Part shown: one piece after another, positions 3,209 through 63,817 of the stretch
Layout of the letters: each line of letters begins with the position of its first letter
Position numbering within the stretch: position 1 is the first letter of the stretch
Notes under the pieces: model-generated
The model's input: the letters and a program-made list of their open reading frames with translations, nothing else
The model's database searches: none
Told to the model about the DNA's origin: nothing
Program-made: the position numbers and the translations under genes
Assembly (NCBI GenBank): GCA_016794365.1
Contig: JAEUKB010000060.1
Span: forward strand, 30,613-94,612
From: Myxococcales bacterium
GTDB taxonomy: Bacteria; Myxococcota_A; Polyangia; Palsa-1104; JAEUJZ01
Direction of reading: 5' to 3'
Length of the DNA: 64,000 bases

Positions 3209-3286
3209 TCTTTGCCGTCGATTGGCTGAACCGTCAAGCGCACGTTCCGCAAGCTACGCGGTTTCAGTTCTTACCTTGACGTGTAG

Positions 3287-4978
<1,692 letters not shown>

Positions 4979-21377: not shown

Positions 21378-21481
21378 AGCCACCAGTATACGCAAAGACC
21401 AGCGTGTCACGTCGCTGGACATGGCGGGTCGTGGCTTCTTCTGCGGAGCCCGTAGCGACCCTGGTAGAGTCTTGCTTTCAG

Positions 21482-36754: not shown

Positions 36755-38329
36755 TTACGCTCCAACGTAGGACGGCGAGCCGTGACGCGCCACCACGAGC
36801 GTCTGATCGTCTTCTAGCTCTGCCGATCCGACAAAGCGCGAGACTTCGCCGATCAGCATCTCGCAGATTTCTTCGACGTTGCGGTTGGCGCCGCGCTGGA
36901 CGGTGTGACGGACGCGCTTGTCGCCGAACTGATCGCCGTTGCCGTTCTGGGCTTCGATGAGTCCGTCTGTGTAGCAGATCAAGATGTCGCCGGGCTCAAA
37001 CGGCTGGGTGTTGGCGACGAACTTGGCGGTATCGCTCGAACCAAGTGGCGAGCCCGCAGCGACGAGCGGAATAAACGGCTTGGTGGTTTCTCGATGACGA
37101 AACAGCAGCGGGAAGGCGTGGGCACCACTGGCGAAAGTGATCTGACATTCCTTGATGTCGATGATGGCGGCAAAGCAGCTCATCGTGAACTTGCCGCGCA
37201 TCGTGGCGGCAATCGCGTGGTTGAGTCGCTGGAGCAGCAGCTCGGGGCGGAGCTTCGGACCTTGCTCTTCGTGCAGGTTCTGCGCACAGCCATAGGCCAT
37301 CGCACCCACGACTGCCGAGCCGATGCCGTGTCCAACAACATCAGCCATGACCAGCATCGTGCGGTGCTCATCAAGCGGATAGTAGTGCCACCAGTCTCCC
37401 GACAGCTTGCTGGCGCTGCGATACACCCCACAGAGCTGGAGCGCGCCGCGAGAGATGCGTCGCACATCCGGCATCAGCGTCTGCTGAACGATCTGGGCAT
37501 CTTGAAGCTCTTGCGCCATGCGCGAGGTGTGCGCGGTGCCTTCGAGCTGCGCTTGCTGAAGGAGCTGCGCTTGGTCAGCCATCATGTTCAGTCGCTCGGC
37601 AATCGCCGCAAACGCGGGCACTTCCACTGGCGTCAGACGTGTCTCGAAGTGACCCATCGCCATCTGCTCCGCGACTTCTTGGACCACCATCGCTTGCTTT
37701 TCGCGCTTGCGATCCCCGAGCACCCACATCGCGAGCGCCACACCGACACCCAAGATGCCGAGCCCGATCGTCAGCCAGACCGGAATCCGCTGCGGCTGCA
37801 CGGTGGTCACCACTTTGCCAAGTCCATCTTCGATTTCAGCGGTGGTTAGCTCGACGTAAAGAAGGCCTTTGCTGCCCGGCTGTCCCGTCACAGGAACCGC
37901 CAGCACGACGCGCTGCTGTTGCGGCGAGGCTTCGACCTTGCGAACAAAGCCTTCCCCGACCGCTTTGCGCAGCAGCTCTTCGGCATGACCGACGAGTGGC
38001 TTTCCGGCGCGTGGCTTTTCCGAAGACGCCACCACGGTCAGGTCATGATCGACGACACCGATTTCAACCAGGTCCGGGTCGCTCTGGGCTGCGCTGTCTA
38101 GCTCGGCTTGCAGCTTGGTCAGGTCGCCTTCCGCCATCGCTGCGCTGATGCGCTGTCCGAGCTTTTCCGCTCGCTTTTGCGATCGCAAGTACACCGACTC
38201 AATCGCCACCTTCTGCGCAACGATCTGGGCGCGCCGCGCTGGGCTGTCGGTGATGCTCAGCATGAGCTGAAGTAGTAGGCACAAGATGCCTCCCGAGGCG
38301 ATGAGAAGCGGAATCCGTTGCTCGGACAT
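36755..38329 (-). CDS. Membrane sensor PP2C-family Ser/Thr phosphatase (TM, periplasmic domain, TM, HAMP, SpoIIE/PP2C)
   Basis: 524 aa. TM1 'IPLLIASGGILCLLLQLMLSI'. TM2 'WLTIGLGILGVGVALAMWVL' followed by a HAMP-like helix. PP2C/SpoIIE core 'SGDWWHYYPLDEHRTMLVMADVVGHGIGSAVVGAM', 'ILICYTDGLIEAQ'. Confidence 0.85.
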   Translation of the reverse strand: MSEQRIPLLIASGGILCLLLQLMLSITDSPARRAQIVAQKVAIESVYLRSQKRAEKLGQRISAAMAEGDLTKLQAELDSAAQSDPDLVEIGVVDHDLTVVASSEKPRAGKPLVGHAEELLRKAVGEGFVRKVEASPQQQRVVLAVPVTGQPGSKGLLYVELTTAEIEDGLGKVVTTVQPQRIPVWLTIGLGILGVGVALAMWVLGDRKREKQAMVVQEVAEQMAMGHFETRLTPVEVPAFAAIAERLNMMADQAQLLQQAQLEGTAHTSRMAQELQDAQIVQQTLMPDVRRISRGALQLCGVYRSASKLSGDWWHYYPLDEHRTMLVMADVVGHGIGSAVVGAMAYGCAQNLHEEQGPKLRPELLLQRLNHAIAATMRGKFTMSCFAAIIDIKECQITFASGAHAFPLLFRHRETTKPFIPLVAAGSPLGSSDTAKFVANTQPFEPGDILICYTDGLIEAQNGNGDQFGDKRVRHTVQRGANRNVEEICEMLIGEVSRFVGSAELEDDQTLVVARHGSPSYVGA

Positions 38330-38332
38330 GTC

Positions 38333-39799
38333 TTACTTGCTCCCTTGCTGGCTCTTCGAGGTGGCGGGGTCGCGACGCAAGATCACCACGGTGAGATCGC
38401 GGGTCGGGTTGCCGACGAACGCATGGACGACATCGAGCAGATGGTCGCGTAGCTCGGCGGCGGTGCTGGTGCGCGCAGTCTTGCGGATTTCATCGATCAG
38501 CACGTCTGCGGACAGGCGCTGATTTTGGATGTTGCGTGCGTCGGTGATGCCATCGGTCAGAAGGATCAGCGCATCACCGGGCGCCAGCTGCACCGAGCGA
38601 TCGCTGAGCGCTTCATCGAGCTGCGTGGAAACAGCCAGCCCGGCGCGATCGACTTGGATCGTCTCTACCGTGCGATTTCCGTCGCGATAGAGCAGCAGCA
38701 GCGGGAGATGGCCCGAAAACGTCACCTTGCCGCCACCGTCGTGACGCAGCAGCAGCACCGAGACCATCTGCTCGTCTTGCATCCGCTTGCGCAGACACTC
38801 GTAGAGCGACGCTGCAACCTGACGCAGCACAGCAGCGGGCGAGGCATCTTTTTTCTGGTTCAGACGCAGGCTGGCTTGCAGCAGGCTATCGACGATCACC
38901 ATCGTGAGTCCCGGCTGGACGCCACTGCCCGAGATGTTGCCGACTGCGACAAAGCCGACCTGCTCGCCTTGGTAGGTCTCGTAAAAGTCGCCGCCACCAC
39001 CGGGAGCCGGGATGATCCGGGCCGAAAACTCAAAGCCACTCATCGATGGATGAAGTGGCAGAAGCTGACTGCGCAGCCGAGCCGCCAGGGCCGCTTCTCG
39101 CTCGTGCGCGGCGGTGCTCTGTAGCTCGTCTTGGGTTCCGCGCAGCTTGCGGATCATCTGTTCCAGACCGTGCGCCACGGCGGTGAGCTCATCGTTGCCA
39201 CCGTGCGGCAAGTCCACGTCGAAGTGACCGCCCGCGACCTGCTGCATCGCCGCGAGCAGTCGTCGCACCCGACCCATCAGCAGCAGTCCCCACAGCCCCG
39301 AGATGAGCAGCGCGAGCAGTACGGCTCCGCGTCCGACGGCAAACAGCGTCGTCTGAACGGTCTTGGCTCGCTCAATGACACCATCGAGAGATCGCACCAG
39401 ACAGCCGTGACTGCTTGGCCCCAGAGAGACGGTGATGCTGCGATAACGGCTGCCAGAGATCTGCTGCTCAGAGATCTCGGTGCTGCGGCTGGCCTGACAG
39501 CGTGTCTCGACGGTGGCTTGGTCGCGTTCTAGCTCTTTGCTGAGCTTTTTGTCGCTGAGCTGACCTTCGCGAATCACCAGCCAAGACAAGCCGGGTCGCG
39601 CCAGATCCTTTAAGACCTCTTCGACCAGCTGACCCGAGCGCAGGGCATGCTGAACGATGCGTGCGTCACTGCGCAGCTCGGCATCGACTTCTTGCTGTCC
39701 GGCACGGCGCAGCGACTGAGTAAACACCCAGCTTGTGGTCGCCACCACCGTTCCTACCAGCGCCGTCGATAACAGCGCCAACTTGATCCCAAGCTTCAA
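38333..39799 (-). CDS. Membrane sensor PP2C-family Ser/Thr phosphatase (TM, periplasmic domain, TM, HAMP, SpoIIE/PP2C), paralog of the downstream gene
   Basis: 488 aa. TM1 'LALLSTALVGTVVATTSWVF'. TM2 'AVLLALLISGLWGLLLM'. HAMP 'RVRRLLAAMQQVAGGHFDVDLPHGGNDELTAVAHGLEQMIRKL'. PP2C 'GGGDFYETYQGEQVGFVAVGNISGSGVQPGL', 'LILLTDGITDARN'. 3-bp gap to the next gene. Confidence 0.85.
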   Translation of the reverse strand: MKLGIKLALLSTALVGTVVATTSWVFTQSLRRAGQQEVDAELRSDARIVQHALRSGQLVEEVLKDLARPGLSWLVIREGQLSDKKLSKELERDQATVETRCQASRSTEISEQQISGSRYRSITVSLGPSSHGCLVRSLDGVIERAKTVQTTLFAVGRGAVLLALLISGLWGLLLMGRVRRLLAAMQQVAGGHFDVDLPHGGNDELTAVAHGLEQMIRKLRGTQDELQSTAAHEREAALAARLRSQLLPLHPSMSGFEFSARIIPAPGGGGDFYETYQGEQVGFVAVGNISGSGVQPGLTMVIVDSLLQASLRLNQKKDASPAAVLRQVAASLYECLRKRMQDEQMVSVLLLRHDGGGKVTFSGHLPLLLLYRDGNRTVETIQVDRAGLAVSTQLDEALSDRSVQLAPGDALILLTDGITDARNIQNQRLSADVLIDEIRKTARTSTAAELRDHLLDVVHAFVGNPTRDLTVVILRRDPATSKSQQGSK

Positions 39800-46579: not shown

Positions 46580-48340
46580 CTATTTGCTCGGTCGATTGGG
46601 GCCGCCGCCGAGAGACGACTGGCTGGCCTGAATGGTGGCGTTCTGTCCGGCACGGATGGTCTGGCGTGAGACGAACTCCTCGAAGCCGTTTTTGGTGACG
46701 TGGATGGATACCGACCACTCGGGCGCGCCCGTGGCCGAGGTCAGCTCGTGCTGCACTTCGCCGCTGCCAGGCACAATGCCGATGTCCAGAAAGTCAATCG
46801 ACACGCGAGAGCCGGGAAGCGCGCGCACCGTCAGCTTCGCTGGACCTTTGGGTCGCTGCACAGCGGGTAGCGTCGTCGGTGGCAGTGGATTGATTGGGAC
46901 CGTGTTTTGCGGCCACAAGAGCAGCAGCGCCAGCACCGCAACGCCAATGGCCGCACCCGCGAAGATAAAGACCAAGCGCCGAAGCTGTCCGCTGCTCGGT
47001 GGCGGTGCGACTTCATACGCTGGCGGTGCCGTCTGCGAGTATCCACCGGGCTGAATGTGCATCCCGCTGACCATCGGACCGGACATCATGCCCGACTGGC
47101 TCATCGCCATCGGAGCATTGACCATCCCCGACGGGTTCATCGCCATCGGCGCGCCGATCATTCCGCTCTGATGCATTCCCATCGGAGCTTGGACTTGACC
47201 TGGAACGCCGTAAGGACCGGGCTGCATCATCATCTGCGGCGCATAGCCCGGTGCGCCCATTCCCATCGGAATCACTCCCGGCGGAAAGGCTCCGGCGCGC
47301 ATCGACATCGAGGGATCCGCCATCGGTGGCGCGGGCATCACCGGAGCAACGGCTAGCTCTCCGTCGATGGCTTGCGCAAACTCGGTCATCGTCTGGAACC
47401 GGCGCGTGCGCTCTTTGTCCATTGCACGCAGGCAGATGGCTTCCAGATCGGGCGGGACATTGCGACTGCGACGGCTCGGCGGCTCCGGCGCTTCAAACAT
47501 GTGCTTGGTCAGCGTGCCCATGTACGTCTCGGCGTGGAAGGGCACTCGTCCCGTCAGCATTTCGTACAAGATGCAGCCCAGCGCATAGATGTCTACGCGA
47601 TGATCCGGCGTCTCGCCACGCGCTTGCTCGGGCGACATGTATTCGGCGGTACCAAAGATCATGCCGCTTTGGGTCAGTCGTCCGCCGGGACCACCACCGC
47701 CCGATTCCATCGTCGTCATCTTGGCGATGCCGAAGTCGAGGATCTTTACAAAGTCGGACTTGCCCTCTTTTTCGACGAGATAGATGTTTTCCGGCTTGAG
47801 GTCGCGGTGGACGATGCCCTTTTGGTGTGCCGCTGCGAGCGCGCGACAGAGCTGACCCATGATCAGACGAATGCGCTGTACCGTCAGCGCGCCGGATTCG
47901 GCAATGACGTGCGCCAGATCGTGACCTTCCAGAAACTCCATCGTGAAGAAGACAGAGCCGGAAGCTGTCTCGCCGAAGTCGTGGACCTCGACGATGTTTT
48001 CGTGACCAATCCGAGCCGCCGCGCGGGCTTCCTGAATGAAGCGCTGCACCAGATCGGGCTTCGACGCAAAGTCCTGCGACAGGATCTTGATTGCGACCCG
48101 ACGCTCGATCATGACGTGCTCAGCCAGGTACACCGCGCCCATCCCGCCAGCACCGAGCTTCTTGATGATCTTGTACCGATCGTTTAGCAGCATTCCGATG
48201 TACGGATCTTGAACCTCGGCAAGCTGCTTCAGCACCGCAGCTTCGCGCGCATCGAGGGCGCTGCCCGGAGACGAGTCTTTTGCTCCCAGCTTTGCGCCCG
48301 GCTGCGACGATGCGTCGTCGAGTTTGGGGGGATTTGGCAC
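46580..48340 (-). CDS. Ser/Thr protein kinase with Pro/Met/Gly-rich linker, TM segment and C-terminal extracytoplasmic domain
   Basis: 'LGAGGMGAVYLAEH', 'VAIKIL', 'HRDLKPENIYLV', 'DFGIAK', 'SPEQ'. Linker 'PMGMGAPGYAPQMMMQPGPYGVPGQ'. TM 'LVFIFAGAAIGVAVLALLLLW'. Confidence 0.85.
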   Translation of the reverse strand: MPNPPKLDDASSQPGAKLGAKDSSPGSALDAREAAVLKQLAEVQDPYIGMLLNDRYKIIKKLGAGGMGAVYLAEHVMIERRVAIKILSQDFASKPDLVQRFIQEARAAARIGHENIVEVHDFGETASGSVFFTMEFLEGHDLAHVIAESGALTVQRIRLIMGQLCRALAAAHQKGIVHRDLKPENIYLVEKEGKSDFVKILDFGIAKMTTMESGGGGPGGRLTQSGMIFGTAEYMSPEQARGETPDHRVDIYALGCILYEMLTGRVPFHAETYMGTLTKHMFEAPEPPSRRSRNVPPDLEAICLRAMDKERTRRFQTMTEFAQAIDGELAVAPVMPAPPMADPSMSMRAGAFPPGVIPMGMGAPGYAPQMMMQPGPYGVPGQVQAPMGMHQSGMIGAPMAMNPSGMVNAPMAMSQSGMMSGPMVSGMHIQPGGYSQTAPPAYEVAPPPSSGQLRRLVFIFAGAAIGVAVLALLLLWPQNTVPINPLPPTTLPAVQRPKGPAKLTVRALPGSRVSIDFLDIGIVPGSGEVQHELTSATGAPEWSVSIHVTKNGFEEFVSRQTIRAGQNATIQASQSSLGGGPNRPSK

Positions 48341-48439: not shown

Positions 48440-50185
48440 CTACTTACCGCGTGAAAACGGATCGCGAAGTCCCGTCGGAAGCGAGGCCGGAGAAGACTTG
48501 CCGGTTGGCTTTTTGGAGTCTCCGTTCTTGGGCTTGTCCGTGGCCTTTGCATCGCTCTTTTTGGCATCAGGACGCGACTTGCGAGACGATCCACCGATCT
48601 TTTCGAGCGGCACATCCACGTCCTGATCTTTTTCGGGCTGCATGTCTTCCGCGTACATCTCGAAGCCTTTGCGTCGCAGCTCCAGATGCATCGGCTGACC
48701 TTTTTTCTGCGAGATCCGCAGCGGCGTAATGCCTCGCACTTCCCCATCGACCACAACCTCCGCACCCGGCGGCTTGGTGGTGATCATCAGATAGACCGGG
48801 CCGGACTCGGCGGTCTTGGTTGGCTGCACCGGCTGAATCACCGGATCCACTTTGGTGGTGATCGGCTTCGGCGGGATCGGCGGCGGCACCGTTGGCTTTT
48901 GCTGCTCTTGGAACAGCAGGAAATACAAAAGGAGCCCAATCACCGCGACCAGCACCACGGCGACGCCAATCAGCACCGGCTTGAGCCCTTTGCCCGAGTC
49001 TACAGCCGAGCTTTTCCCTGTTGGACGCGGCGAGCTGGTTGCTCCCATCGCCTGTGGAAACTGCGCAATCGGCTGCGGAAACATGCCCGGCTGAACGCCC
49101 ATCGCAGGAACCATCGGCTGCTGAAAGCTGGGCTGCGACGGATAGCTCGGCATCTGCGGTGCCGGAACCTGGCCACTGGTTGGCGCTGGCGGACTGACCA
49201 TGCCGGGATCGTCGATGACGATCCGTCCGCCTTTCATCTCTTGTTCGACTTGGGTGAGCGCCTGCTCTAGCTCTTTCATCGACGGGAAGCGCGCTTCCGG
49301 CTTTTTGGCCATCGCGCGAATCACCACTGCGTCGAGTGATGCAGGAATCTTCAGCTCTGGCTTGCGCTTCCGAGGCGGAATGACTGGCTCGAAGACGTGC
49401 TTGGTCAGCGTCTGCGCCGGGCGATCCCCGAGGAACGGCACCACGCCGGTCAGCATCTCGTACATGATGCAGCCCGTCGCGTACTGGTCAACGCGGTGAT
49501 CGGTTTCCTGTCCGGTTGCTTGCTCCGGCGACATGTATTCCGGCGTCCCGAGCACCATTCCGACCTGCGTCAGCTTTTGGCCCGAGCCCACCTTGGCGAT
49601 GCCGAAGTCCACGATCTTGACGAAGTCTTTTTGCCCCTCTCGCTCGAGGAGAAAGATGTTTTCCGGCTTGAGATCGCGGTGGACGATGCCCTTTTGGTGC
49701 GCGGCGTTCAGTCCTCGTCCCATCTGCGCCGCGATCGTGCAGACCCGAGCCGGCTCGAGCGGTCCTTCCTGGATCGCCTGCGCCAGCGTCTGGCCTTGCA
49801 AAAACTCCATGACAAAGTAGGCATGACCGTCGGGAAGAACGCCGAAGTCGGTGATGTCTACGATGTTGCTGTGACCGATCTTCGACGCCGACTTGGCTTC
49901 CTGAATGAAGCGCTGCACCGCCGCTGTGTCCTGGGCTGCTTCTTTGCGCAGGATCTTGATCGCAACCGGCTTGTCGATAAGAACGTGGCGCGCCTTGTAG
50001 ACAACGCCCATGCCACCTTCACCGAGCCTCGATTCGATGGCGTAGCGACCATCAATCGTGGTGCCAAGCAGCGGATCAGCCTCGACCTCTTTGGCTGCCG
50101 AGGTGTTTGGCAACGGGGACCCATCCCGTGGGCAAAACTCAAGCACGTCCGGGTACTTGATCTGACACTGGGGACAAGTCTTCAC
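48440..50185 (-). CDS. Ser/Thr protein kinase with N-terminal zinc-ribbon, TM segment and C-terminal PEGA-like domain
   Basis: 'MKTCPQCQIKYPDVLEFCPRDG' (C-x2-C...C-x4-D ribbon). 'LGEGGMGVVYKARH', 'VAIKIL', 'HRDLKPENIFLL', 'DFGIAK'. TM 'VLIGVAVVLVAVIGLLLYFLLF'. PEGA-like 'ITTKPPGAEVVVDGEVRGITPLRI'. Confidence 0.85.
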   Translation of the reverse strand: MKTCPQCQIKYPDVLEFCPRDGSPLPNTSAAKEVEADPLLGTTIDGRYAIESRLGEGGMGVVYKARHVLIDKPVAIKILRKEAAQDTAAVQRFIQEAKSASKIGHSNIVDITDFGVLPDGHAYFVMEFLQGQTLAQAIQEGPLEPARVCTIAAQMGRGLNAAHQKGIVHRDLKPENIFLLEREGQKDFVKIVDFGIAKVGSGQKLTQVGMVLGTPEYMSPEQATGQETDHRVDQYATGCIMYEMLTGVVPFLGDRPAQTLTKHVFEPVIPPRKRKPELKIPASLDAVVIRAMAKKPEARFPSMKELEQALTQVEQEMKGGRIVIDDPGMVSPPAPTSGQVPAPQMPSYPSQPSFQQPMVPAMGVQPGMFPQPIAQFPQAMGATSSPRPTGKSSAVDSGKGLKPVLIGVAVVLVAVIGLLLYFLLFQEQQKPTVPPPIPPKPITTKVDPVIQPVQPTKTAESGPVYLMITTKPPGAEVVVDGEVRGITPLRISQKKGQPMHLELRRKGFEMYAEDMQPEKDQDVDVPLEKIGGSSRKSRPDAKKSDAKATDKPKNGDSKKPTGKSSPASLPTGLRDPFSRGK

Positions 50186-55959: not shown

Positions 55960-56832
55960 TTACAGACGGGGAATTCCCAGCGAGAGCGGTGCCGCGCTGT
56001 GCGTCTTGCCCAGCAGTCCGCGCAGCATCAGCGTCAGCAGCGTGAGAACGTACGGGACGGACTGCAAGATCCAGTTGGGAATCAGCAGTCCGCGTGCTTG
56101 GAGAAAGATTCCGGAGGCTTCTGCCGTCGCAAACAGCAGCGCAGCAGCGGCTCCCCACAGCGGTCGCCAGCCTCCGAAGATCATCGCGGCCAAGGCCAGA
56201 AAGCCACGTCCGCCCGACATCAGGGCCACAAACTGTCGCTGCTCGAAGACCAAGTACACGCCACCGATGGCCGTCAGCAGTCCAGATAGCGCAACGGCCC
56301 ACATTCGCACGCTGAGCACCGACACCGACAGCGCTTGCGCTGCCGCTGGCTTGTCACCGACCGCGCGCAGCCGCAGTCCCAGCACCGAGTGATAGATCAA
56401 TCCGTGTAGCAGAATCACCGACGAAAACGTCACGGCCAGAAGCCACAGCGGACCGCTTCCTACCAGCGCATCCAGCCGAGGCGAGTTCGATGTCGAGCCA
56501 AACTGTACCTTCAGCAGCACGCGCGAAAGCCCATCGGCCAGCATGAAGATCGCGACGCCACAGACGATCTGATCGCCGCGAAAGACGACGACCAGCAAGC
56601 CGTAGAGCAGCGCTGTGATGACACCGGCTGCCAGCCCACACACAAGCGCCAGCGCTGCGCCATGCGGTGCGCCCAGTGCCGTTCCGAGCGCCGCAATCAG
56701 CAAGATGCCTTCCAGCGCGATGTTGATGACGCCTGCGCGCTCACAGACCGTGCCTCCCAGCGCCGCCATCACATAGGGCACCGAGATGCGCAGGATCGCC
56801 CACAGAAGCCCCACAAGAGCCAATGAGTCCAC
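55960..56832 (-). CDS. ABC transporter permease (BPD_transp_2; nucleoside/simple-sugar type, YufQ/NupQ-like)
   Basis: 290 aa, ~8 TM. 'GVINIALEGILLIAALGTA' conserved region of this permease family. Confidence 0.8.
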   Translation of the reverse strand: MDSLALVGLLWAILRISVPYVMAALGGTVCERAGVINIALEGILLIAALGTALGAPHGAALALVCGLAAGVITALLYGLLVVVFRGDQIVCGVAIFMLADGLSRVLLKVQFGSTSNSPRLDALVGSGPLWLLAVTFSSVILLHGLIYHSVLGLRLRAVGDKPAAAQALSVSVLSVRMWAVALSGLLTAIGGVYLVFEQRQFVALMSGGRGFLALAAMIFGGWRPLWGAAAALLFATAEASGIFLQARGLLIPNWILQSVPYVLTLLTLMLRGLLGKTHSAAPLSLGIPRL

Positions 56833-56835
56833 GTT

Positions 56836-58035
56836 CTACCTCGCTGCCCACGGAGAGACAGAGTCCACGGTTTCCGGCACTTGCATCGGCGGCGGCTCGT
56901 GGCTGTGCGCATCGTCAGATTCTCGACTGGTCTGCTTTGGTGGACGCACGTCCTTGTTTCCATCGTCCGTCTTCGCCTGCTGAAAGCGGGGCAGCAAGCG
57001 GCGCACTTCCGCCGAAGCGGTTGCGACGGCCAGGATCACCACCGCGCTGAGCACGTCGATGAGCTCTCGGGGAACCATCGCGTTTACGGCCAGCCCGCCT
57101 TGCGCCAGCGTTCCGAAGAACAGCGCCGACAAGATGACCCACAGCGGCTGGTTATGCGCCAGCACCGCGACGGCAATGCCCAGATAGCCGACACCCGCCG
57201 AAAAGCCGTCCTCGTAGTAGTACTTGTAGCCCAGGACGAAGTTGGCCCCGCCGAGTCCCGCCAGCCCACCCGACAGCGTCAGTGCCAGCGTCTGAATCCA
57301 GCCGATGCGCAGACCCGTTGCCGCTGCCGCGTCGGGATTTTGACCCACCACGCGCAGCGCAAAGCCCAGTCGGGTCCGACGAAGCAGAAGCTCGATGGCC
57401 ACAGCCAGCAGCAGGGCCAGCACAAGCGCTGCATTGACCGCTGAGCCATGAAGCTGGGGAAGGATCGTCGCCAGCCGAGGCAGCTTGGCCGAATCAATGA
57501 CCGGCGCGGTATGTACCGATTCTTTTAGGAACAGATACCCACCGACGCCGATCATGACCGCTCGGACGATGAAGTTTAGCAAGATGGTGACGATGACCTC
57601 GTGGGCTCGACACAGCCACTTGCACAGCCCGACGAACGCACCGACCAGACCGCCCGCGCAGAACGCCGCAAGCAGGCACAGCGGAACCGCTACCACAGAT
57701 GGAACAGCGACGGGAAGATAGGCACCACACAGGGCCGCTGCGAGCGCTCCGACGATGAGCTGACCTTCCGCTCCGACGTTGAACAGCCCAGCCCGCAGCG
57801 CGACCGCCACCGCCAGCCCGGTACAGATGAGCGGTGTGGTCTTAAACAGAACCTGTCCGATGCCGTAGACACTGCCCCACGTCCCAGCGAGCAGCAGCCG
57901 ATACATGGCGAGCGGGCTCTGACCATACAGCCTAGCCAGCAGCGACGCCATGGCCATGGCCAGGAGCGCCGCCCAGACAAACGGCAGCGCCCGTAGCCAC
58001 AGCGGACCCCGAGAAAGCTCGTGTGAGCCCGCCAT
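56836..58035 (-). CDS. ABC transporter permease (BPD_transp_2; YufP/NupP-like) with hydrophilic C-terminal tail
   Basis: 399 aa. 'GLFNVGAEGQLIVGALAAAL'. Multiple TM. About 60-aa charged C-terminal tail. 3-bp gap to the downstream permease. Confidence 0.8.
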   Translation of the reverse strand: MAGSHELSRGPLWLRALPFVWAALLAMAMASLLARLYGQSPLAMYRLLLAGTWGSVYGIGQVLFKTTPLICTGLAVAVALRAGLFNVGAEGQLIVGALAAALCGAYLPVAVPSVVAVPLCLLAAFCAGGLVGAFVGLCKWLCRAHEVIVTILLNFIVRAVMIGVGGYLFLKESVHTAPVIDSAKLPRLATILPQLHGSAVNAALVLALLLAVAIELLLRRTRLGFALRVVGQNPDAAAATGLRIGWIQTLALTLSGGLAGLGGANFVLGYKYYYEDGFSAGVGYLGIAVAVLAHNQPLWVILSALFFGTLAQGGLAVNAMVPRELIDVLSAVVILAVATASAEVRRLLPRFQQAKTDDGNKDVRPPKQTSRESDDAHSHEPPPMQVPETVDSVSPWAAR

Positions 58036-58041
58036 GTGCGT

Positions 58042-61000
58042 CTACAGCGTCCCCGCCTTGCGTCGGCGCATCACCAGCAGCAGCAGCGTCAGCACCGACA
58101 GCTGCGCAAGCGGTCCGCCGGTCGAGCTGTGGCCCATCGTGCAGCCACTCGCTTCTTCCATCGGCATCGGACGATTGATGCCGTCGCCTTCTGCGCTGAC
58201 CTGCGCCAGGCTGACCGCCGTGCCCTTCATGCGGATGTCGATCAGCTCGGACTTGCTGCCCGTCGCTTTCGGTGCGAACACCACCGGAACCTTGGTCGCT
58301 TCACTTGGACCGAGCGACAGCTTGACCTGCGACAGATCCACCAGCCACTCGTCGCCCGGCGGCACAATCACGTCCAGCTCCAGCGGCGTCGTTCCATCGT
58401 TGGCAATCGTGATCGACAGCGGGTTTGACTGATCGCCGACGAAGACCGGACGGAAGCGCAGCGTCGTCGGAGAAACCGTCAGCAGCGCTGACATCGACGA
58501 GCCCTTGATCTGCACCGTCATCGGAACCTGCACGCCGTCTGCTTCCACCACCGCAACCGCCTTGATTTCCGCCTTGGCGACGCGCGGATCGAAGGTGATG
58601 CCGATCTCACTGCTCTCGCCGGGAAGGATCTTGGTCTTGTATCCCGTCACGACGGTGAAGTCCGCAGCGCCCTCGCCCGACAGCTTGACCGACAGGTTGT
58701 CGATGACCACCGAGCCGACGTTGGTCACCTTCACGACCTTCATCTCGCTCTTTTGTCCGACGTAAATCGGCGTGTTGAACTCCAGCACGACCGGATCGAC
58801 GGTGACGTTGGGCACCACGCCGTTTACCGACAGCGGCAGCGAGAACTTGGTTCCTCCCGCGACCGCTGGATCGTCGGTGGTGATGTCCAGCTTTGCCGTC
58901 GCGACACCGACCATCGCTGGAATGCAGTTCACCGTGAAGGTTGCGCTGCCGCCTGCTGCAATCTTGGTTCCGTCTGCTGGCGCATTCACCGAAAACACGC
59001 TCACCATCGGAGAGATCGCGCTCTTGAGGATCGTCAGCTCCTTGTTTCCGTTGTTGGTCAGCTTCACCACCTTCGACACCGTCTGCTTGACCTTGGCATC
59101 ACCGAAGTCCACCTTGGCTACATCGAGCTGACCGACGGCACCATTGGCTTCAGCCTTGAGCGCTACCGTCGCAGAGCCCGACGTTAGCAGATCCGTTACG
59201 ATGCGCAGCGTCGCAGCCAGTGCTCCCGCCGACTTCGGTGACACCAGCACCTGCGCGTTGACCTTCGTTCCGGCGCGCAGCACAAACGGCGTAGCTTCCA
59301 GCGTCGAGACCACGAACGAGTCCGCGCCCATTCCCGAAGCAATCGCCACTTCTTTGACCAGCAAGTCCCCGTCGCCATCGTTGCTTAGCTCGACCTGCTT
59401 TGGGGCGGACATCGATCCGATGTTGACCGAGCCAAAGTCGAGCGAGGTGACGTTCACCTTGAACTTCGGCTCCGTCGCGGTTCCTGCCAGATCGATGGTC
59501 TTGTCCGAGCCCGGCGGTCCCGGCGGCTCGTTGCTCGACAGCGTCAGCTTGCCCGTGCGCAGCCCGTTGACCGTCGGAGAAAACACAATCTGGAACGTCT
59601 TGGTCTGCTGCGCTTGTACCACGAGCGGGCTCATCGCCGTCGGCGCGTTCGGTACCGAAAAGTCGGTGCTGTCCGTCACAATCGACGGCACGCTCAGGTC
59701 TGAATAGCCTTCGTTGGTCAGGTTGATGGTGATCGGAATGCCCTTGCTTCCCGTCGGAACATCCGGCATCAGCACCGAGGTATACGGCAGCTTGGCTTTC
59801 GGCGGACCGGCCAGCGCGCGCACCGGAATCTGAAGCGGACTGCTCGCATCCGTCGAAAGCACCGTAATGCTCGTCGAGAGATCTCCGGTATCCATGCCCG
59901 GCGTGAACTTGACCTCGAAGCTGTACGTCGCCCCCGCGAACATCGTGATCTTGGCGTCGGGACGCGAGGTCTTCAGCTCGTAGTGCGTCGTATCTCCGAT
60001 GGTCGGCTTTTCCAGCTCAATCGGCGACGTGCCTGCGTTTTTCAGTCGCACCGTCACCGGACCCGCCGTCGAGCCTGATGGATTGCCACCAAAATCGATC
60101 GGCGACAGCGAGATCCACAGGTTGCCTTTGCTGGTTCCTTCCAGCACCGATTCGACGCGAGGCAGACCGCTCAGCGTCATAAACAGCGTCGCGCGATGTG
60201 CGCCTTGGACTTGCGGCTTGAACGCCACTTGCACCGACAGCGACGAGCCAATTGGGAGCGTGACAGGTGCCGCCGAGCTGGGCTCGTAGTCGCTGCGATA
60301 GACAAACTGGGCCTTGCCCGAGCCGTCGATGCCGATACTGGTCACATCGATCGGTGCGTCGGAGATGTTGCGGAACGTGATCGTCGTCCAGGCGCTCGCT
60401 CCGCCGAGGCCGGTGCTCGGGAAGACAGGCTTGCGCGGGCTCTGGAGCATTGGTGCCGACAGATACAGGATGGCGTTGGTGATCAGCTCTCCGCCGGTGC
60501 CGCCCCACGAGCCGGTGATCGCGCCTTCATCGCCCGGAAGCATGTTCAAGTCCACGCGCTTTTTGCCGCGCACCGCCAGCAGCGTTCCGTCCGCCCAGTA
60601 TGCGACGGCAGTGGCTCCGGCTCGCAGCGTGGTTCCAGTGACGCGCTGACAGTTGGAACCGCAGGAAAACTCCGTCACTCCTTCGACGAGCGGATCGCCA
60701 CTGAGCACCGTGCCACGCTTGGTTGCTGACGTAGCGTTGGTCGCGCTCTGCGACGTAAGTGCATAGTTTGCGAGGAATCGACCCGCAACGGCTGGCGCAC
60801 CAAACAAGCCGGTCTGCCAGGTGTTCGGCTGGAACATCAGCACCGACGCGCCCGGCACCATCGACATATAGTCCCCGAGCACGTTGCCTACGCCGTCGCC
60901 GCTCGACAGGCCGTAGTCGCTCGACAGCACCACCACCAGCTTGTAGTTTTGAAGCTGGGTCAGCGTCGGGTCACTAAACGCCGAGTCGATCTGATCGACC

Positions 61001-61179
61001 GACGTGTACAGCCCGGTCGCCATGATCTTTTGCTTTACATACTGCCACCAGGCGCTCTCGCTGGAGCGGGTGGCCGTGACGATGGCAGCCTTCTGCGCGC
61101 TTGCCGACTGGACGAAGCCACATATCGTCCACAGCGCCAGCAAAAGGCCGCACACACGCGCAAGTCGAGATCGAGACAT
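58042..61179 (-). CDS. Giant secreted cell-surface protein with repeated Ig-like ('choice-of-anchor D'-like) domains and a MYXO-CTERM-type C-terminal sorting signal
   Basis: Start 'MSRSRLARVCGLLLALWTICGFVQSASAQ' (ATG at 61179; the track start 61263 adds a non-signal extension). At least 8 repeats of '...DFG.V.(I)G......L.N.G...L.I...' ('LDFGSVNIGSMSAPKQVELSNDGDGDLLV', 'VDFGDAKVKQTVSKVVKLTNNGNKELTI', 'IDFGGNPSGSTAGPVTVRLKNAGTSPIEL'). C-terminus 'GCTMGHSSTGGPLAQLSVLTLLLLVMRRRKAGTL' is Cys, then a Gly/Ser spacer, a hydrophobic helix, then Arg-rich, i.e. the MYXO-CTERM pattern. 6-bp gap to the permease gene. Confidence 0.75.
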   Translation of the reverse strand: MSRSRLARVCGLLLALWTICGFVQSASAQKAAIVTATRSSESAWWQYVKQKIMATGLYTSVDQIDSAFSDPTLTQLQNYKLVVVLSSDYGLSSGDGVGNVLGDYMSMVPGASVLMFQPNTWQTGLFGAPAVAGRFLANYALTSQSATNATSATKRGTVLSGDPLVEGVTEFSCGSNCQRVTGTTLRAGATAVAYWADGTLLAVRGKKRVDLNMLPGDEGAITGSWGGTGGELITNAILYLSAPMLQSPRKPVFPSTGLGGASAWTTITFRNISDAPIDVTSIGIDGSGKAQFVYRSDYEPSSAAPVTLPIGSSLSVQVAFKPQVQGAHRATLFMTLSGLPRVESVLEGTSKGNLWISLSPIDFGGNPSGSTAGPVTVRLKNAGTSPIELEKPTIGDTTHYELKTSRPDAKITMFAGATYSFEVKFTPGMDTGDLSTSITVLSTDASSPLQIPVRALAGPPKAKLPYTSVLMPDVPTGSKGIPITINLTNEGYSDLSVPSIVTDSTDFSVPNAPTAMSPLVVQAQQTKTFQIVFSPTVNGLRTGKLTLSSNEPPGPPGSDKTIDLAGTATEPKFKVNVTSLDFGSVNIGSMSAPKQVELSNDGDGDLLVKEVAIASGMGADSFVVSTLEATPFVLRAGTKVNAQVLVSPKSAGALAATLRIVTDLLTSGSATVALKAEANGAVGQLDVAKVDFGDAKVKQTVSKVVKLTNNGNKELTILKSAISPMVSVFSVNAPADGTKIAAGGSATFTVNCIPAMVGVATAKLDITTDDPAVAGGTKFSLPLSVNGVVPNVTVDPVVLEFNTPIYVGQKSEMKVVKVTNVGSVVIDNLSVKLSGEGAADFTVVTGYKTKILPGESSEIGITFDPRVAKAEIKAVAVVEADGVQVPMTVQIKGSSMSALLTVSPTTLRFRPVFVGDQSNPLSITIANDGTTPLELDVIVPPGDEWLVDLSQVKLSLGPSEATKVPVVFAPKATGSKSELIDIRMKGTAVSLAQVSAEGDGINRPMPMEEASGCTMGHSSTGGPLAQLSVLTLLLLVMRRRKAGTL

Positions 61180-61283
61180 CGTTTGGACTCCTTGCATGGG
61201 TTCGCGGTCAACAAAGTGGGTAGGGAAGTCGGACACACCTACGCCTAGGTGGGGGTTTAGCACAGCTTGTACGGGGTCCGCCG

Positions 61284-62609
61284 CTAGAACGATAGCCGCG
61301 TCTGGATTCCGGTCTGAATCACGGTTCCTGCGACGGAAAAATCACCAACAGAAGAGCGTGGATCTGACTTGCGGAAGGTTCTCGTCGGCAGATAGGTCAG
61401 TCCGACATAGCCATCGAAGGCAATCGGACGTGGCAGCACCTTGGTCAGTCCCGCCAGCTCTGCGCCGAGCCCGATGCTGAAGATGTGCTTGTCGCTGTCG
61501 CCCAGGCTCGACTCGCCGTCTTGTTCGGGAATCGGTGATCCTTCGTAGCGATAGCCCGCGCGAGCATCGAGAGACAGCGGTCCGCATCCGTCGAGCGCGC
61601 GCCACTCAAGACCGACCGCAGGAATCAGCAGATCGCGAAATCCGACGGGCGGATAGTCTTTGGACTTGGGCAGCTTGACGAGATCGGTCAGCTGTCCAAT
61701 GTCGAGATCGAGCGTAAACACAGCGGCGGGCGGAGGCTGCTCTCGCCAGCGCGCGTAGGTCAAGTCGAAGCTGACCAGCAATCGCGAAAAGCGTGCCGCC
61801 GCTGCTGCGACGAGCTGCCACGGCTGAAACAGATCGACCGAGCGCGCCAGCTCTTTGAGACTGCCTTTTTCGACGACGGGACGCTGTCCAGGGTCGGCCA
61901 CCTGCGCATCGATTTGAAAGCCTTGTTCCAGATCGAGCGCAAAGCGATGTCGATACGTCAGCCCGAGCGTCAGGTTCGGCGTCGCTGCAAACAGCAGACC
62001 GACCTGCGGATAGCGAATCGCGAACAGATCTTGGCTGATCGAAGCGGTCAGCTCACTGCGCTCGGGGTCCGAGATGCCGATTCGTCCGCGCAGATAGACC
62101 GTTCCCGACGAGCGCGACATAAACGCGAGGCCGCCGCCCAGGTACAGACCGCGATAGATGTGAAACGCCAAGTTGGCCGCCAGATACAGACGCTGGGTTC
62201 GGTTGTCGTACATGTGCAGCCTCGGTTGATCGAAGCTGAGCACGCGAATCCTCGTCACATGCTGGTCGGGCAAAAACAGCGAGACTCCGAAGGCAAAGCG
62301 CGCCGGACCGATCGATCCAGGCAGCACCACTCCGGCGGTGAGCCCGCGCGTATCGAGGAGCCACTGACGCTGACCCGATACCTCGACGAGCGGACGCGCA
62401 AACTGATAGCCGACATCGATGCGCAGACCACTTGCCCGTGCGAGCCCGGCGGGGTTGTAGTAGTTGGCTGCACTGTCATCAGCGACGGCAGAATAGGCAG
62501 AGCCCATGGCTGCCGCGCGCGCACCGTATCCAAAGGCGTCGATGGGATTGGCGTGAGCCTGACCGCGAAGTGCCGCAGCGACGACAAGTGCCAAGATGAC
62601 ACGCTTCAT
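61284..62609 (-). CDS. Outer-membrane beta-barrel protein, FadL/TodX/OmpP1-like
   Basis: 'MKRVILALVVAAALRGQAHA' signal. 'AMGSAYSAVADDSAANYYNPAGLA' (N-terminal hatch motif with NPA). Alternating amphipathic beta-strand pattern. Ends '...RLSF' (C-terminal Phe). Confidence 0.55.
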   Translation of the reverse strand: MKRVILALVVAAALRGQAHANPIDAFGYGARAAAMGSAYSAVADDSAANYYNPAGLARASGLRIDVGYQFARPLVEVSGQRQWLLDTRGLTAGVVLPGSIGPARFAFGVSLFLPDQHVTRIRVLSFDQPRLHMYDNRTQRLYLAANLAFHIYRGLYLGGGLAFMSRSSGTVYLRGRIGISDPERSELTASISQDLFAIRYPQVGLLFAATPNLTLGLTYRHRFALDLEQGFQIDAQVADPGQRPVVEKGSLKELARSVDLFQPWQLVAAAAARFSRLLVSFDLTYARWREQPPPAAVFTLDLDIGQLTDLVKLPKSKDYPPVGFRDLLIPAVGLEWRALDGCGPLSLDARAGYRYEGSPIPEQDGESSLGDSDKHIFSIGLGAELAGLTKVLPRPIAFDGYVGLTYLPTRTFRKSDPRSSVGDFSVAGTVIQTGIQTRLSF

Positions 62610-63817
62610 AGTCGCACTCCCAGCGCTGCACCACCGACGAAAAGCTGACCATCCAAGCGACCACCGGGCGACAGCAAATGCGCCTGTCCAAACAGATCCA
62701 GATCGAGCGGAACTTTGCTGCGCAGGCTCAAGCCCAGACCGACGCTCAGGACATGACGGCTCTGGTCGAGCAGGCTCTTTCCATCGTCTGTTTGCTGCGT
62801 GCTTGGCGTCGGTGTCCAGTCGAAGAAATAGCCACCGCGCAGCTTGATCTGAACCAAGTCCGGCGTCGGCACTTGATATTCCAGCGAGACACGCGGCACC
62901 ACGGTGTCGTGAAAGCCCGGCTCAGGCAGCTTCGGGGAATCCGCCGTCGCTGGTTCAATCGGATAGCGATAGTCGCTCCAGTTCTTCCAGGCAAGCTGCG
63001 CGACAAGCTGTAGCGACGAAGAAATCCGGATCGCAGCCTCGGCCCCGAGCTGAAGCGGATCGTACTGCGCGATGCCTGCGAACGAAATCAGCGGCAGCCC
63101 GAGCGGAATGGCGTCGCCCAATTCGGTATGAAGCCGCAGCAGATACGACGAGCGCGACGCGCCTCGGAAGGTCAGCCCAAGCTGAATGCGCTCACTCGGT
63201 GGCGACCAGCGAATGCCCAAGATCGGGGCGTAATCGACCGTAAGCTGCTCTTCGGAGATGGTGGTAATGCGTCCCGTGCCGTCGGGTCGAATGAAGATGT
63301 CTCCGACGAGAGCCGCGAGCGCCAAGACGCCGCCACCGATGCGCAGTCCGAGAGGCAACCGAATGCCCATGCCGACGAGAACCGAGACAACTTCAGTGCG
63401 TGAGTCGAGGAGAACCGCGCGGGGAACCTCGGGATAGGGCACGCTCACGCGGTTGACGACCCCGGCGGGCAGGTATAGGCCAAGTCCGATGCCGATGCGG
63501 TCGCGCAGGATTCCACCGAGGGGAAGTGGGACGCTGGCACCGATCTGAACGCCGGCGGGGTTGCTCAGCGGATGGGGCTGGTCGTCGATACGAAGCCGAA
63601 AGCCGCCATAGATGAAGCCGAGCGAGAGCTTTTTTTGCGACGACGACAGGCCCGCTGGATTTTGATAGGTCGCTTCCCAGTCGTCGGCCATCGCAATGCC
63701 AGTACCCGCCATCGCTGCGGAGCGCGGACCGAGAGAGAGCAGATCCGGCAGCGATGCCAGCGCAGCACTCGGAACGAGCGTCGTCAGTCCCAGCAGCAGT
63801 CGGGCGGCGCGCGTCAT
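62606..63817 (-). CDS. Outer-membrane beta-barrel protein, FadL/TodX-like paralog
   Basis: 'LLLGLTTLVPSAALA' signal. 'AMAGTGIAMADDWEATYQNPAGLS', the same motif as the neighbouring gene. Its stop overlaps that gene's start by 4 bp. Its own ATG overlaps the dtd stop. Confidence 0.5.
   Translation of the reverse strand: MTRAARLLLGLTTLVPSAALASLPDLLSLGPRSAAMAGTGIAMADDWEATYQNPAGLSSSQKKLSLGFIYGGFRLRIDDQPHPLSNPAGVQIGASVPLPLGGILRDRIGIGLGLYLPAGVVNRVSVPYPEVPRAVLLDSRTEVVSVLVGMGIRLPLGLRIGGGVLALAALVGDIFIRPDGTGRITTISEEQLTVDYAPILGIRWSPPSERIQLGLTFRGASRSSYLLRLHTELGDAIPLGLPLISFAGIAQYDPLQLGAEAAIRISSSLQLVAQLAWKNWSDYRYPIEPATADSPKLPEPGFHDTVVPRVSLEYQVPTPDLVQIKLRGGYFFDWTPTPSTQQTDDGKSLLDQSRHVLSVGLGLSLRSKVPLDLDLFGQAHLLSPGGRLDGQLFVGGAALGVRL

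Follow-up and report, generated by a model that had tools for sequence, protein, structure and literature searches.

A Polyangia protein with an amidotransferase-like head, seven Ig-like domains and a MYXO-CTERM-type tail, probably displayed at the cell surface

The window analysed here is a stretch of 64,000 nucleotides from a Myxococcales bacterium (contig JAEUKB010000060.1). Its minus strand encodes a secreted protein of 1045 amino acids (58042..61179), which raises the question of where such a protein is placed and what it does there. The source lineage is Myxococcota/Polyangia, where the MYXO-CTERM signal is known to operate. We consider it probable that the target is an ordinary myxobacterial cell-surface protein. 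It would consist of a non-enzymatic head, an Ig-like stalk and a C-terminal lipid-anchor tag.

The reading frame stops at 58042 on the minus strand and is open as far back as 61263. The start at ATG 61179, taken from the original prediction, agrees with a Shine-Dalgarno sequence read directly from the DNA (AAGGAG, 61188..61193, minus strand, 8 nt before the ATG) and with the N-termini of orthologs (MSRPRL.., MSQPRN..). The GC3 of the gene is 0.78. A promoter scan between 55.5 and 64 kb found no sigma-70-like site, a result that is uninformative for a myxobacterium. The product had been called giant; with 1045 amino acids it is large rather than giant. Its length is nearly constant (1043-1071 aa) among relatives spanning 45-94% identity.

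Only two segments of the protein are hydrophobic, residues 6-24 and 1022-1038. The first is the core of a predicted signal peptide of the SPase I type (residues 1-28, MSRSRLARVCGLLLALWTICGFVQSASA, followed by QK; 61096..61179, minus strand), with an ASA/QK cleavage site. Such an N-terminal Sec signal is expected in MYXO-CTERM proteins. Among orthologs, A28 is invariant and Q29 nearly so. A lipoprotein signal peptide was rejected, since WTIC20 forms no lipobox and Cys20 varies among orthologs. The full-length AlphaFold (AF2) model has a pLDDT of 82.8. It shows an alpha/beta region (29-241), an all-beta region (244-1002) and a disordered segment (1004-1027, pLDDT <50). As proposed before, the N-terminal part (~220 mature residues) lies outside the repeat pattern, being alpha/beta against the all-beta 244-1002.

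The repeat signal is real and far above chance. The NCBIfam model choice_anch_D (NF012200) matches the target with 213.2 bits (E 6.7e-64) over seven stretches, compared with a curated cut-off of 45 bits. By this score, the protein belongs to the choice-of-anchor D group. Pfam HYDIN_VesB_CFA65-like_Ig (PF22544) gives 128 bits (E 1.8e-37) and PF15780 (ASH) 94.6 bits. Cep192 and DUF1573 also match in the repeat region. Likewise, Foldseek with the full-length AF2 model finds tandem-ASH ciliary proteins, to whose domain arrays the predicted tandem beta-sandwiches are alike in fold. Hence the assignment to choice-of-anchor-D/ASH-type beta-sandwiches holds in NCBIfam, Pfam and Foldseek alike, and all seven repeats match the choice-of-anchor D and ASH-HYDIN-VesB models strongly.

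A self-HMM of the repeats delimits seven units between residues 248 and 1000, and the choice_anch_D stretches give the same number; the earlier count of at least eight is not sustained. On the minus strand, HMM matches, self-HMM and AF2 place domain 1 at residues 248-353 (60121..60438), domain 2 at 354-460 (59800..60120) and domain 3 at 461-571 (59467..59799). Domain 4 (572-682, 59134..59466) corresponds to the best choice_anch_D stretch (561-662), and domain 5 (683-790, 58810..59133) holds the best HYDIN_VesB_CFA65-like_Ig/ASH stretch (685-770). Domain 6 (791-898, 58486..58809) contains the DUF1573 stretch (840-894). Domain 7 (899-1000, 58180..58485) is membrane-proximal and the least conserved of the seven. 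The repeats share the consensus F......G..S.P..V.L.N.G...L. Of the core described in the original prediction, the literal DFG is found in only 3 repeats. Identity between repeats is only 10-30%, which indicates an old array that is not recently expanding. Compared with other choice-of-anchor D proteins, the target group differs in two features. All orthologs keep exactly seven repeats, and a non-Ig head caps the array.

This head is an alpha/beta domain of ~220 aa (residues 29-247; 60439..61095, minus strand), defined by AF2 and Foldseek. Pfam and NCBIfam scans of the 260-aa N-terminal region alone gave no match, even at E<=10. A word-indexed protein search returned only six near-identical fragments; the family becomes visible by phmmer, whose exhaustive search found 835 representative homologues (clusters at 50%). 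Pfam ThuA (PF06283) matches 23 of 45 sampled homologues (best E 4.1e-13), and a few match Glyco_hydro_42M, so that the family can also be likened to the trimerisation domain of GH42 beta-galactosidase (PF08532). The target head itself does not match the ThuA HMM; the relationship is indirect, through its homologues. In ten distant homologues, NCBIfam matches only sorting-signal models and none that covers the domain. The tags carried by family members are varied: MYXO-CTERM, PEP-CTERM, GC-type dockerin, T9SS and IPTL-CTERM.

The family profile found nothing among PDB sequences at E<=10, and fold comparison alone gave matches. The AF2 model of the head (pLDDT 81.5, pTM 0.83) has 52 Foldseek matches in the PDB at E<=0.001. 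The best 50 of these are almost all GATase domains (TM 0.45-0.66), with GATase subunits at the top (E 1.7e-8, TM 0.54/0.64). The AlphaFold and Foldseek check suggested for this domain thus yields a class I GATase/ThuA-like fold. The predicted model has the three-layer alpha/beta/alpha fold of class I glutamine amidotransferases, with the same strand order as the GATase subunit of GMP synthetase (7d97) and PabA (8hx8). Nevertheless, the Cys-His-Glu triad of these enzymes is absent. Residues 29-247 contain no histidine, and their only cysteines, C173 and C177, do not follow the strand 112-116 but belong to a loop further on. Without His and an elbow Cys, the head cannot carry the GATase triad, and we rejected the reading of it as an amidotransferase. 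The ThuA/GATase motifs, which we take to be GGG(V/L)V and HP, align with PGASVL and DP in the target. A second difference from ThuA and class I GATases is the location: those families are cytoplasmic, whereas the target head is joined to sorting signals and predicted to lie outside the cell. It was first suggested that the head may be ligand-binding or enzymatic. It is indeed a distinct non-Ig domain, but binding is more likely than catalysis, as the catalytic triad is absent.

At the other end, a Pro/Met-rich linker (INRPMPMEEAS, residues 1001-1011; 58147..58179, minus strand) is predicted to be disordered and has no invariant column. It leads to a MYXO-CTERM-type tail (residues 1012-1045; 58045..58146, minus strand), assigned by its TIGR03901 match and by the ortholog tails. 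The tail reads G-C1013 (codon 58141-58143), the spacer TMGHSSTGG, the helix PLAQLSVLTLLLLVM, RRRK and AGTL before the stop. The mean hydropathy of the window 1023-1037 is 2.14. The C-terminus quoted in the original prediction is exact, and its layout of Cys, spacer, hydrophobic helix and Arg cluster is present. In MYXO-CTERM, neither Pro nor charged residues occur in the helix, which is followed by an Arg cluster (10.1101/2023.06.07.544157). The target has this tripartite layout, including the Cys motif.

TIGR03901 (MYXO-CTERM) is the best match on the last 45 aa, with 18.6 bits (E 0.0019, profile 4-33 of 34). This answers the suggested HMM check in part: the target score is 1.4 bits below the curated cut-off of 20 bits, but nine of ten ortholog tails pass it (20.1-28.5 bits), the exception being L007 (13.5 bits). 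A sub-threshold TIGR03901 score can therefore be rescued by ortholog comparison. In 37 full-length relatives (45-94% identity), C1013 is the sole invariant column of the tail, and G1012, R1038 and R1039 are nearly invariant. JDVT-CTERM, GlyGly-CTERM and PEP-CTERM were rejected as readings of the tail, with lower scores that are each below their own cut-off. Mean identity among orthologs is 69% in the head (the best-conserved domain), 51% in Ig-like domain 7 and 33% in the tail.

The genomic relatives of the target comprise 11 loci, all from MAGs. Seven of these MAGs bear the label Myxococcales or Polyangia; in the remaining four, labelled 'Pseudomonadota bacterium', the same gene is found with 64-87% identity. 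Across the 11 loci, the gene is restricted to Myxococcota, as is expected of MYXO-CTERM. Public records already name some relatives, P0217 as 'MYXO-CTERM domain-containing protein' (JGI) and P0187 and P0208 as 'choice-of-anchor D domain-containing protein' (NCBI).

Taken from this anatomy, the target is probably a Polyangia cell-surface protein sorted through the MYXO-CTERM/myxosortase route. Experimentally, a C-terminal cleavage that needs the Cys and a surface anchoring that needs the T2SS were shown only for TraA and MXAN_4924 of M. xanthus (PMC11980579). Following this model, the protein would be exported by Sec and then held in the inner membrane by its C-terminal helix (PMC11980579). Cys1013 would be lipidated, by extrapolation from M. 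xanthus, and a CPBP-family myxosortase of the MrtX or MrtC type would remove the helix and the Arg tail (PMC11980579). The type II secretion system would deliver the protein, already folded, to the external face of the outer membrane, and there it would hang from its lipid (PMC11980579). The seven Ig-like domains could form a stalk whose length is constant (some 25-30 nm when stretched out) and that presents the head away from the cell. Judging from its anatomy, the head would be a binding or self-association module and not an amidotransferase. The target is most likely an adhesin or a receptor-like surface protein, the term adhesin coming from the architecture alone. The 64-kb window contains no CPBP EExxxR motif or myxosortase gene, and no second MYXO-CTERM-like tail. 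In one relative (L016), a second tail of this kind occurs two genes from the target ortholog.

Two other readings concern what the head does and whether the tail is processed at all. The protein could be a surface-displayed enzyme, in which a catalytic ThuA/GATase1-like head acts on a sugar, cell-wall or exopolysaccharide substrate, and the stalk and tail merely display it. We regard this as unlikely. The ThuA family, matched by relatives of the head, has a link to trehalose utilisation, and no other part of the protein is as well conserved as the head. The head also has a clade-invariant motif (C173-G-x-x-C177-x-R179) and other residues invariant in relatives (D88, D162, D197 and D210). A parallel exists with MYXO-CTERM hydrolases such as MepA, and many MYXO-CTERM proteins of M. 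xanthus are predicted hydrolases (PMC11980579). However, the head lacks histidine, and after the strand SVLMF its nucleophile elbow carries neither Cys nor Ser. The alignment of the wider family shows no conserved Cys, Ser or His; its only invariants (G70, G105, P135, L173 and N207) include no polar residue typical of catalysis. The motifs DxGGGVV, PPSSD and TDG of that family are replaced in the target clade. The two cysteines likely form a clade-specific disulfide, because CxxxC aligns with GGxSS in relatives. The protein might instead be a plain bitopic inner-membrane protein, unprocessed and periplasmic, with the helix as a stop-transfer anchor. This is highly improbable. In formal terms, the target tail misses the TIGR03901 cut-off, and that model is described by its author as short, divergent, lineage-sensitive and in need of curatorial review (10.1101/2023.06.07.544157). 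Nevertheless, in 37 of 37 relatives an invariant Cys follows Gly at 9-14 residues before the helix, even as the other tail positions drift, and nearly all the sampled ortholog tails exceed the cut-off. The helix without charge or Pro and the Arg cluster after it also fit the MYXO-CTERM description, and a stalk of such length is hard to fit in the periplasm.

The neighbouring genes suggest another function, the capture of a hydrophobic or nucleoside-like nutrient for import. Upstream on the minus strand are two paralogous genes for FadL/TodX-type outer-membrane barrels (62606-63817 and 61284-62609). They match Pfam Toluene_X with 30.4 and 58.9 bits and share 26% identity (E 4e-29). Downstream are two BPD_transp_2 ABC permease genes (56836-58035 and 55960-56832, minus strand, by Pfam/NCBIfam), the first starting 6 nt past the target stop codon. 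All five genes are on the same strand with close spacing (4-bp overlap, ~105 nt, 6 nt and 3 nt), and the only terminator-like hairpin (55940-55928) comes after the last permease gene. In this reading, the five genes would form one operon, and the target would catch the nutrient at the surface and pass it on to the FadL-type channels and the ABC permeases; we find this very unlikely. The original prediction gave weight to the position upstream of the permeases. This part stands in so far as the order target-permease-permease persists in relatives down to an identity of 59% (L009, L011 and L016 included), except L007. However, the pair is absent beside the gene in four lineages, L007 (62%), L010 (48%), L012 (45%) and L014 (53%). 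These have no barrels there either, and in L007 the upstream ORF shows no relation to them. Only orthologs with at least 76% identity have the FadL pair beside the gene. With synteny confined to close relatives, we rejected a functional coupling to the barrels. Neither an LSGGQ nor an ABC Walker A motif of an ABC ATPase occurs within the window, and its scanned ORFs include no SBP or ATPase. The combination expected of an ABC importer of the BPD_transp_2/BMP type, an ATPase and a substrate-binding protein in conserved linkage to the target, is not found here. Moreover, the head resembles GATases and not periplasmic binding proteins, and a surface-anchored protein cannot act as one.

For the preferred surface protein, the closest parallel is with TraA and other MYXO-CTERM proteins of M. 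xanthus, which are MrtX substrates (PMC11980579). They share a signal peptide, an adhesin-like extracellular region, a disordered linker, the Cys/helix/Arg tag and the phylum Myxococcota. In contrast to the common MYXO-CTERM form with GCGC or CC, the target has a single Cys (GC[ST]M). Its passenger is unrelated to that of TraA, without a PA14-like variable domain or Cys-rich repeats, and no TraB-like partner adjoins it. Unlike in TraA, sorting of the target is predicted from sequence, with a TIGR03901 score that falls short of the cut-off. VesB of Vibrio cholerae, a GlyGly-CTERM/rhombosortase substrate, contains an Ig-like domain that falls in one Pfam family with those of the target. Both share the design principle of a T2SS-dependent surface protein with a tripartite C-terminal tag, although sorting is only predicted in the target. 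The tags differ, and a rhomboid protease sorts VesB compared with a CPBP protease for MYXO-CTERM. VesB also consists of a serine protease passenger and one Ig-like domain.

The target protein does not challenge current understanding, and its relatives already have names in public records. With it, the likely myxosortase substrates of the poorly studied Polyangia gain a well-defined orthologous group whose architecture is fixed as head, seven Ig-like domains and MYXO-CTERM tail. The head family is large and secreted, has a ThuA-like/GATase1 fold without a dedicated model, and is repeatedly combined with sorting signals of different kinds at the C-terminus. With a curated model of the head and one binding or structure study, hundreds of surface proteins would gain an annotation. 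There is a slim chance of a broader picture. In it, the head would be a widespread, unmodelled, triad-less 'choice-of-anchor' cargo of GATase1/ThuA-like type, secreted, which in the Polyangia clade could form the tip that captures the ligand in an uptake route from surface to cytoplasm, transcribed together with two FadL-type channels and an ABC permease pair that lacks an ATPase.

The predicted surface protein encoded at 58042-61179 (minus strand) combines known kinds of domain, choice-of-anchor D and MYXO-CTERM, and public pipelines already give such labels. The original prediction is essentially correct, save for the repeat count and the weight it placed on two neighboring permeases. The gene ends at 58042, and its reading frame is open back to 61263. 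The proposed start, ATG 61179, is right: AAGGAG (61193-61188) lies 8 nt upstream, and the equivalent Met starts the orthologs. The N- and C-terminal strings quoted earlier are exact. The GC3 of 0.78 is typical of real genes in the window (G+C 62%). The product has 1045 amino acids and, by hydropathy, only two hydrophobic segments, 6-24 and 1022-1038. The first is a signal peptide with the terminus ASA|QK. Six codons upstream of 61179 is a further in-frame ATG (61195-61197, minus strand; MQGVQT-MSRSRL), which overlaps the Shine-Dalgarno region and is probably unused, because it has no Shine-Dalgarno sequence of its own and the orthologs start at MS(R/Q)(P/S)R.

For the last 45 residues, the best HMM match was TIGR03901 (MYXO-CTERM; 18.6 bits, E 0.0019, profile positions 4-33 of 34), 1.4 bits below its curated cut-off; JDVT-CTERM scored 10.8 bits. 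The author of TIGR03901 describes a short, lineage-sensitive HMM, the same layout of Cys motif, helix and Arg cluster, and a domain confined to Myxococcia and Polyangia (10.1101/2023.06.07.544157). Relatives occur in 11 genomic loci, all from MAGs, assigned to Myxococcales/Polyangia or to 'Pseudomonadota' carrying the same gene. All 11 show G-C-[SA], then a hydrophobic stretch, then RRR at the C-terminus. Nine of the ten relatives' tails scored reach the cut-off (20.1-28.5 bits), and one gives 13.5. Across 37 full-length relatives (45-94% identity, 1043-1071 aa), the mean identity of the tail is only 33%. Its sole invariant column is C1013, with G1012, R1038 and R1039 nearly invariant. The C-terminal helix contains no Pro and no charged residue. 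One relative is already labeled 'MYXO-CTERM domain-containing protein' (JGI) and two 'choice-of-anchor D domain-containing protein' (NCBI). On these sequence comparisons we accept the predicted tail as a putative MYXO-CTERM domain at the family level; this copy by itself falls short of the formal HMM cut-off. A second MYXO-CTERM-like tail is seen in the same lineage. It belongs to a 439-aa protein with a faint VWA match (2990-4309, minus strand, of L016, a related bioreactor contig), two genes upstream of the ortholog, with the C-terminus GGSGGCELAPRS...LAAPLAAGALLAAAWGLRRRRAARA.

The region between head and tail is a stalk of Ig-like repeats. With the NCBIfam model choice_anch_D (NF012200), seven stretches match at 213 bits in all, where the cut-off is 45. 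Pfam matches are HYDIN_VesB_CFA65-like_Ig (E 1.8e-37), Cep192_D4, ASH, DUF1573 and TMEM131_like_N. Manual segmentation and a self-HMM give seven contiguous units, at residues 248-353, 354-460, 461-571, 572-682, 683-790, 791-898 and 899-1000. The self-HMM count is circular by construction, and its independent support is the NCBIfam count of seven. The units are 10-30% identical in pairs and share the consensus F......G..S.P..V.L.N.G...L. In the full-length AlphaFold2 model (36-sequence alignment, mean pLDDT 82.8), residues 244-1002 are all-beta. In the PDB, the folds closest to it belong to tandem ASH-domain proteins of the ciliary central apparatus; titin, DSCAM and alpha-2-macroglobulins come next. 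At least eight repeats of about 100 aa with a 'DFG' core had been predicted. The repeats exist, but the number is seven, and a literal 'DFG' occurs in three. Stalk length is conserved across the ortholog family. At about 4 nm per Ig-like domain, we estimate that seven domains would keep the head roughly 25-30 nm clear of the membrane.

The head (residues 29-247) is, as predicted, a non-Ig domain. Pfam and NCBIfam scans gave no match even at E<=10, and a word-indexed protein search returned near-identical fragments only. Exhaustive phmmer found 835 representatives at E<=1e-3, 248 of them at E<=1e-10. Their architectures are diverse, and some proteins have 2-7 copies. Among 45 sampled homologues, 23 match Pfam ThuA, a few match Glyco_hydro_42M or DUF7408, and several bear PEP-CTERM, Por_Secre_tail, IPTL-CTERM or dockerin. 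NCBIfam recognized the sorting tags of the homologues and nothing else, and a profile of the family found no match among PDB sequences. The family is a large set of secreted domains with many different sorting signals, partial ThuA coverage and no NCBIfam model. Some homologues of 60439-61095 (P0007-P0180) consist of this one domain plus a PEP-CTERM or GC-type dockerin tail; others, up to 4,000 aa long, have 2-7 copies in tandem.

When the head was modeled with AlphaFold2 (pLDDT 81.5, pTM 0.83), its fold matched subunits of class I glutamine amidotransferases, among them GuaA-GATase, PabA and TrpG (E as low as 1.7e-8, TM 0.54/0.64, identity 10-14%). What is new here, and only mildly so, is its recognition as a triad-less GATase1/ThuA-like domain. 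The catalytic triad is missing: the head has no His, its only Cys are C173 and C177, and QPNTW stands at the elbow after strand SVLMF. This rules out class I amidotransferase catalysis. The head is without any catalytic signature, and GATase1-like domains related to it are oligomerization domains in GH42 enzymes. For both reasons, we consider the head to be probably a binding or self-association module. Some other enzymatic role is less likely. In the target clade, the wider-family motifs DYVDxGGGVV, PPSSD and TDG become DYMSMVPGASVL, LPGDEG and GGTGGE, and GGxSS becomes an invariant C-G-x-x-C-x-R. Among orthologs the head is the most conserved domain (69% mean identity, 17% invariant columns), and conservation is lowest in the membrane-proximal Ig7, the linker and the tail. 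This gradient is consistent with a stalk that bears a functional tip at its far end.

The route described for TraA and MXAN_4924 in M. xanthus (PMC11980579) suggests how the protein may be sorted. The protein would be exported by Sec and cleaved by SPase I, with the C-terminal helix as a transient inner-membrane anchor. Cys1013 would be lipidated, and a CPBP-family myxosortase would remove the helix and Arg tail. Last, the protein would reach the cell surface in a T2SS-dependent manner, with the lipid as its anchor.

The gene lies in a tight same-strand cluster (minus). Two paralogous FadL/TodX-type outer-membrane barrels (26% identity, E 4e-29) precede it: FadL-like B (62606-63817; Toluene_X 30.4 bits) and, after a 4-bp overlap, FadL-like A (61284-62609; 58.9 bits), about 105 nt before the gene. 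Their N-terminal motif also matches the PorV/PorQ family, well below cut-off. Two BPD_transp_2 ABC permeases follow, at 56836-58035, starting 6 nt past the stop codon, and 3 nt later at 55960-56832, then a terminator-like hairpin (55940-55928). No ABC ATPase or binding-protein gene was found within the 64-kb window, and no ATPase within +/-6 kb in relatives down to 59% identity. The best NCBIfam matches of the permease pair, putative B6 ABC permease 1/2, are far below cut-off. The complete five-gene order, and with it the barrel pair upstream, is found only in orthologs of at least 76% identity. The position upstream of the orphan permeases had been given weight. The order of gene and both permeases is indeed kept down to 59-61% identity (loci L009, L011, L016), but it is absent in L007 (62%), L010 (48%), L014 (53%) and L012 (45%). 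In these four, the genes around it bear no relation to the cluster (Kelch, BNR, isochorismatase, FtsZ, NfeD/Band_7, amine oxidase), which makes the gene an independent unit. It is plausibly co-transcribed with the permeases in one sub-clade, but a functional link is unsupported.

Nothing in the rest of the window is out of the ordinary for a myxobacterial chromosome; it encodes Ser/Thr kinases, TPR proteins, GH31, alpha-amylase, sulfatase and Kup. At least four Ser/Thr kinase genes lie in the 64 kb (10707-13463, 21404-24349, 46580-48340, 48440-50185), one with two kinase stretches and one with a PEGA domain. Two HAMP/SpoIIE-type phosphatase-like ORFs, judged by their termini only, are at 36755-39799. 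Such a kinase and phosphatase-like set is typical of a myxobacterial chromosome.
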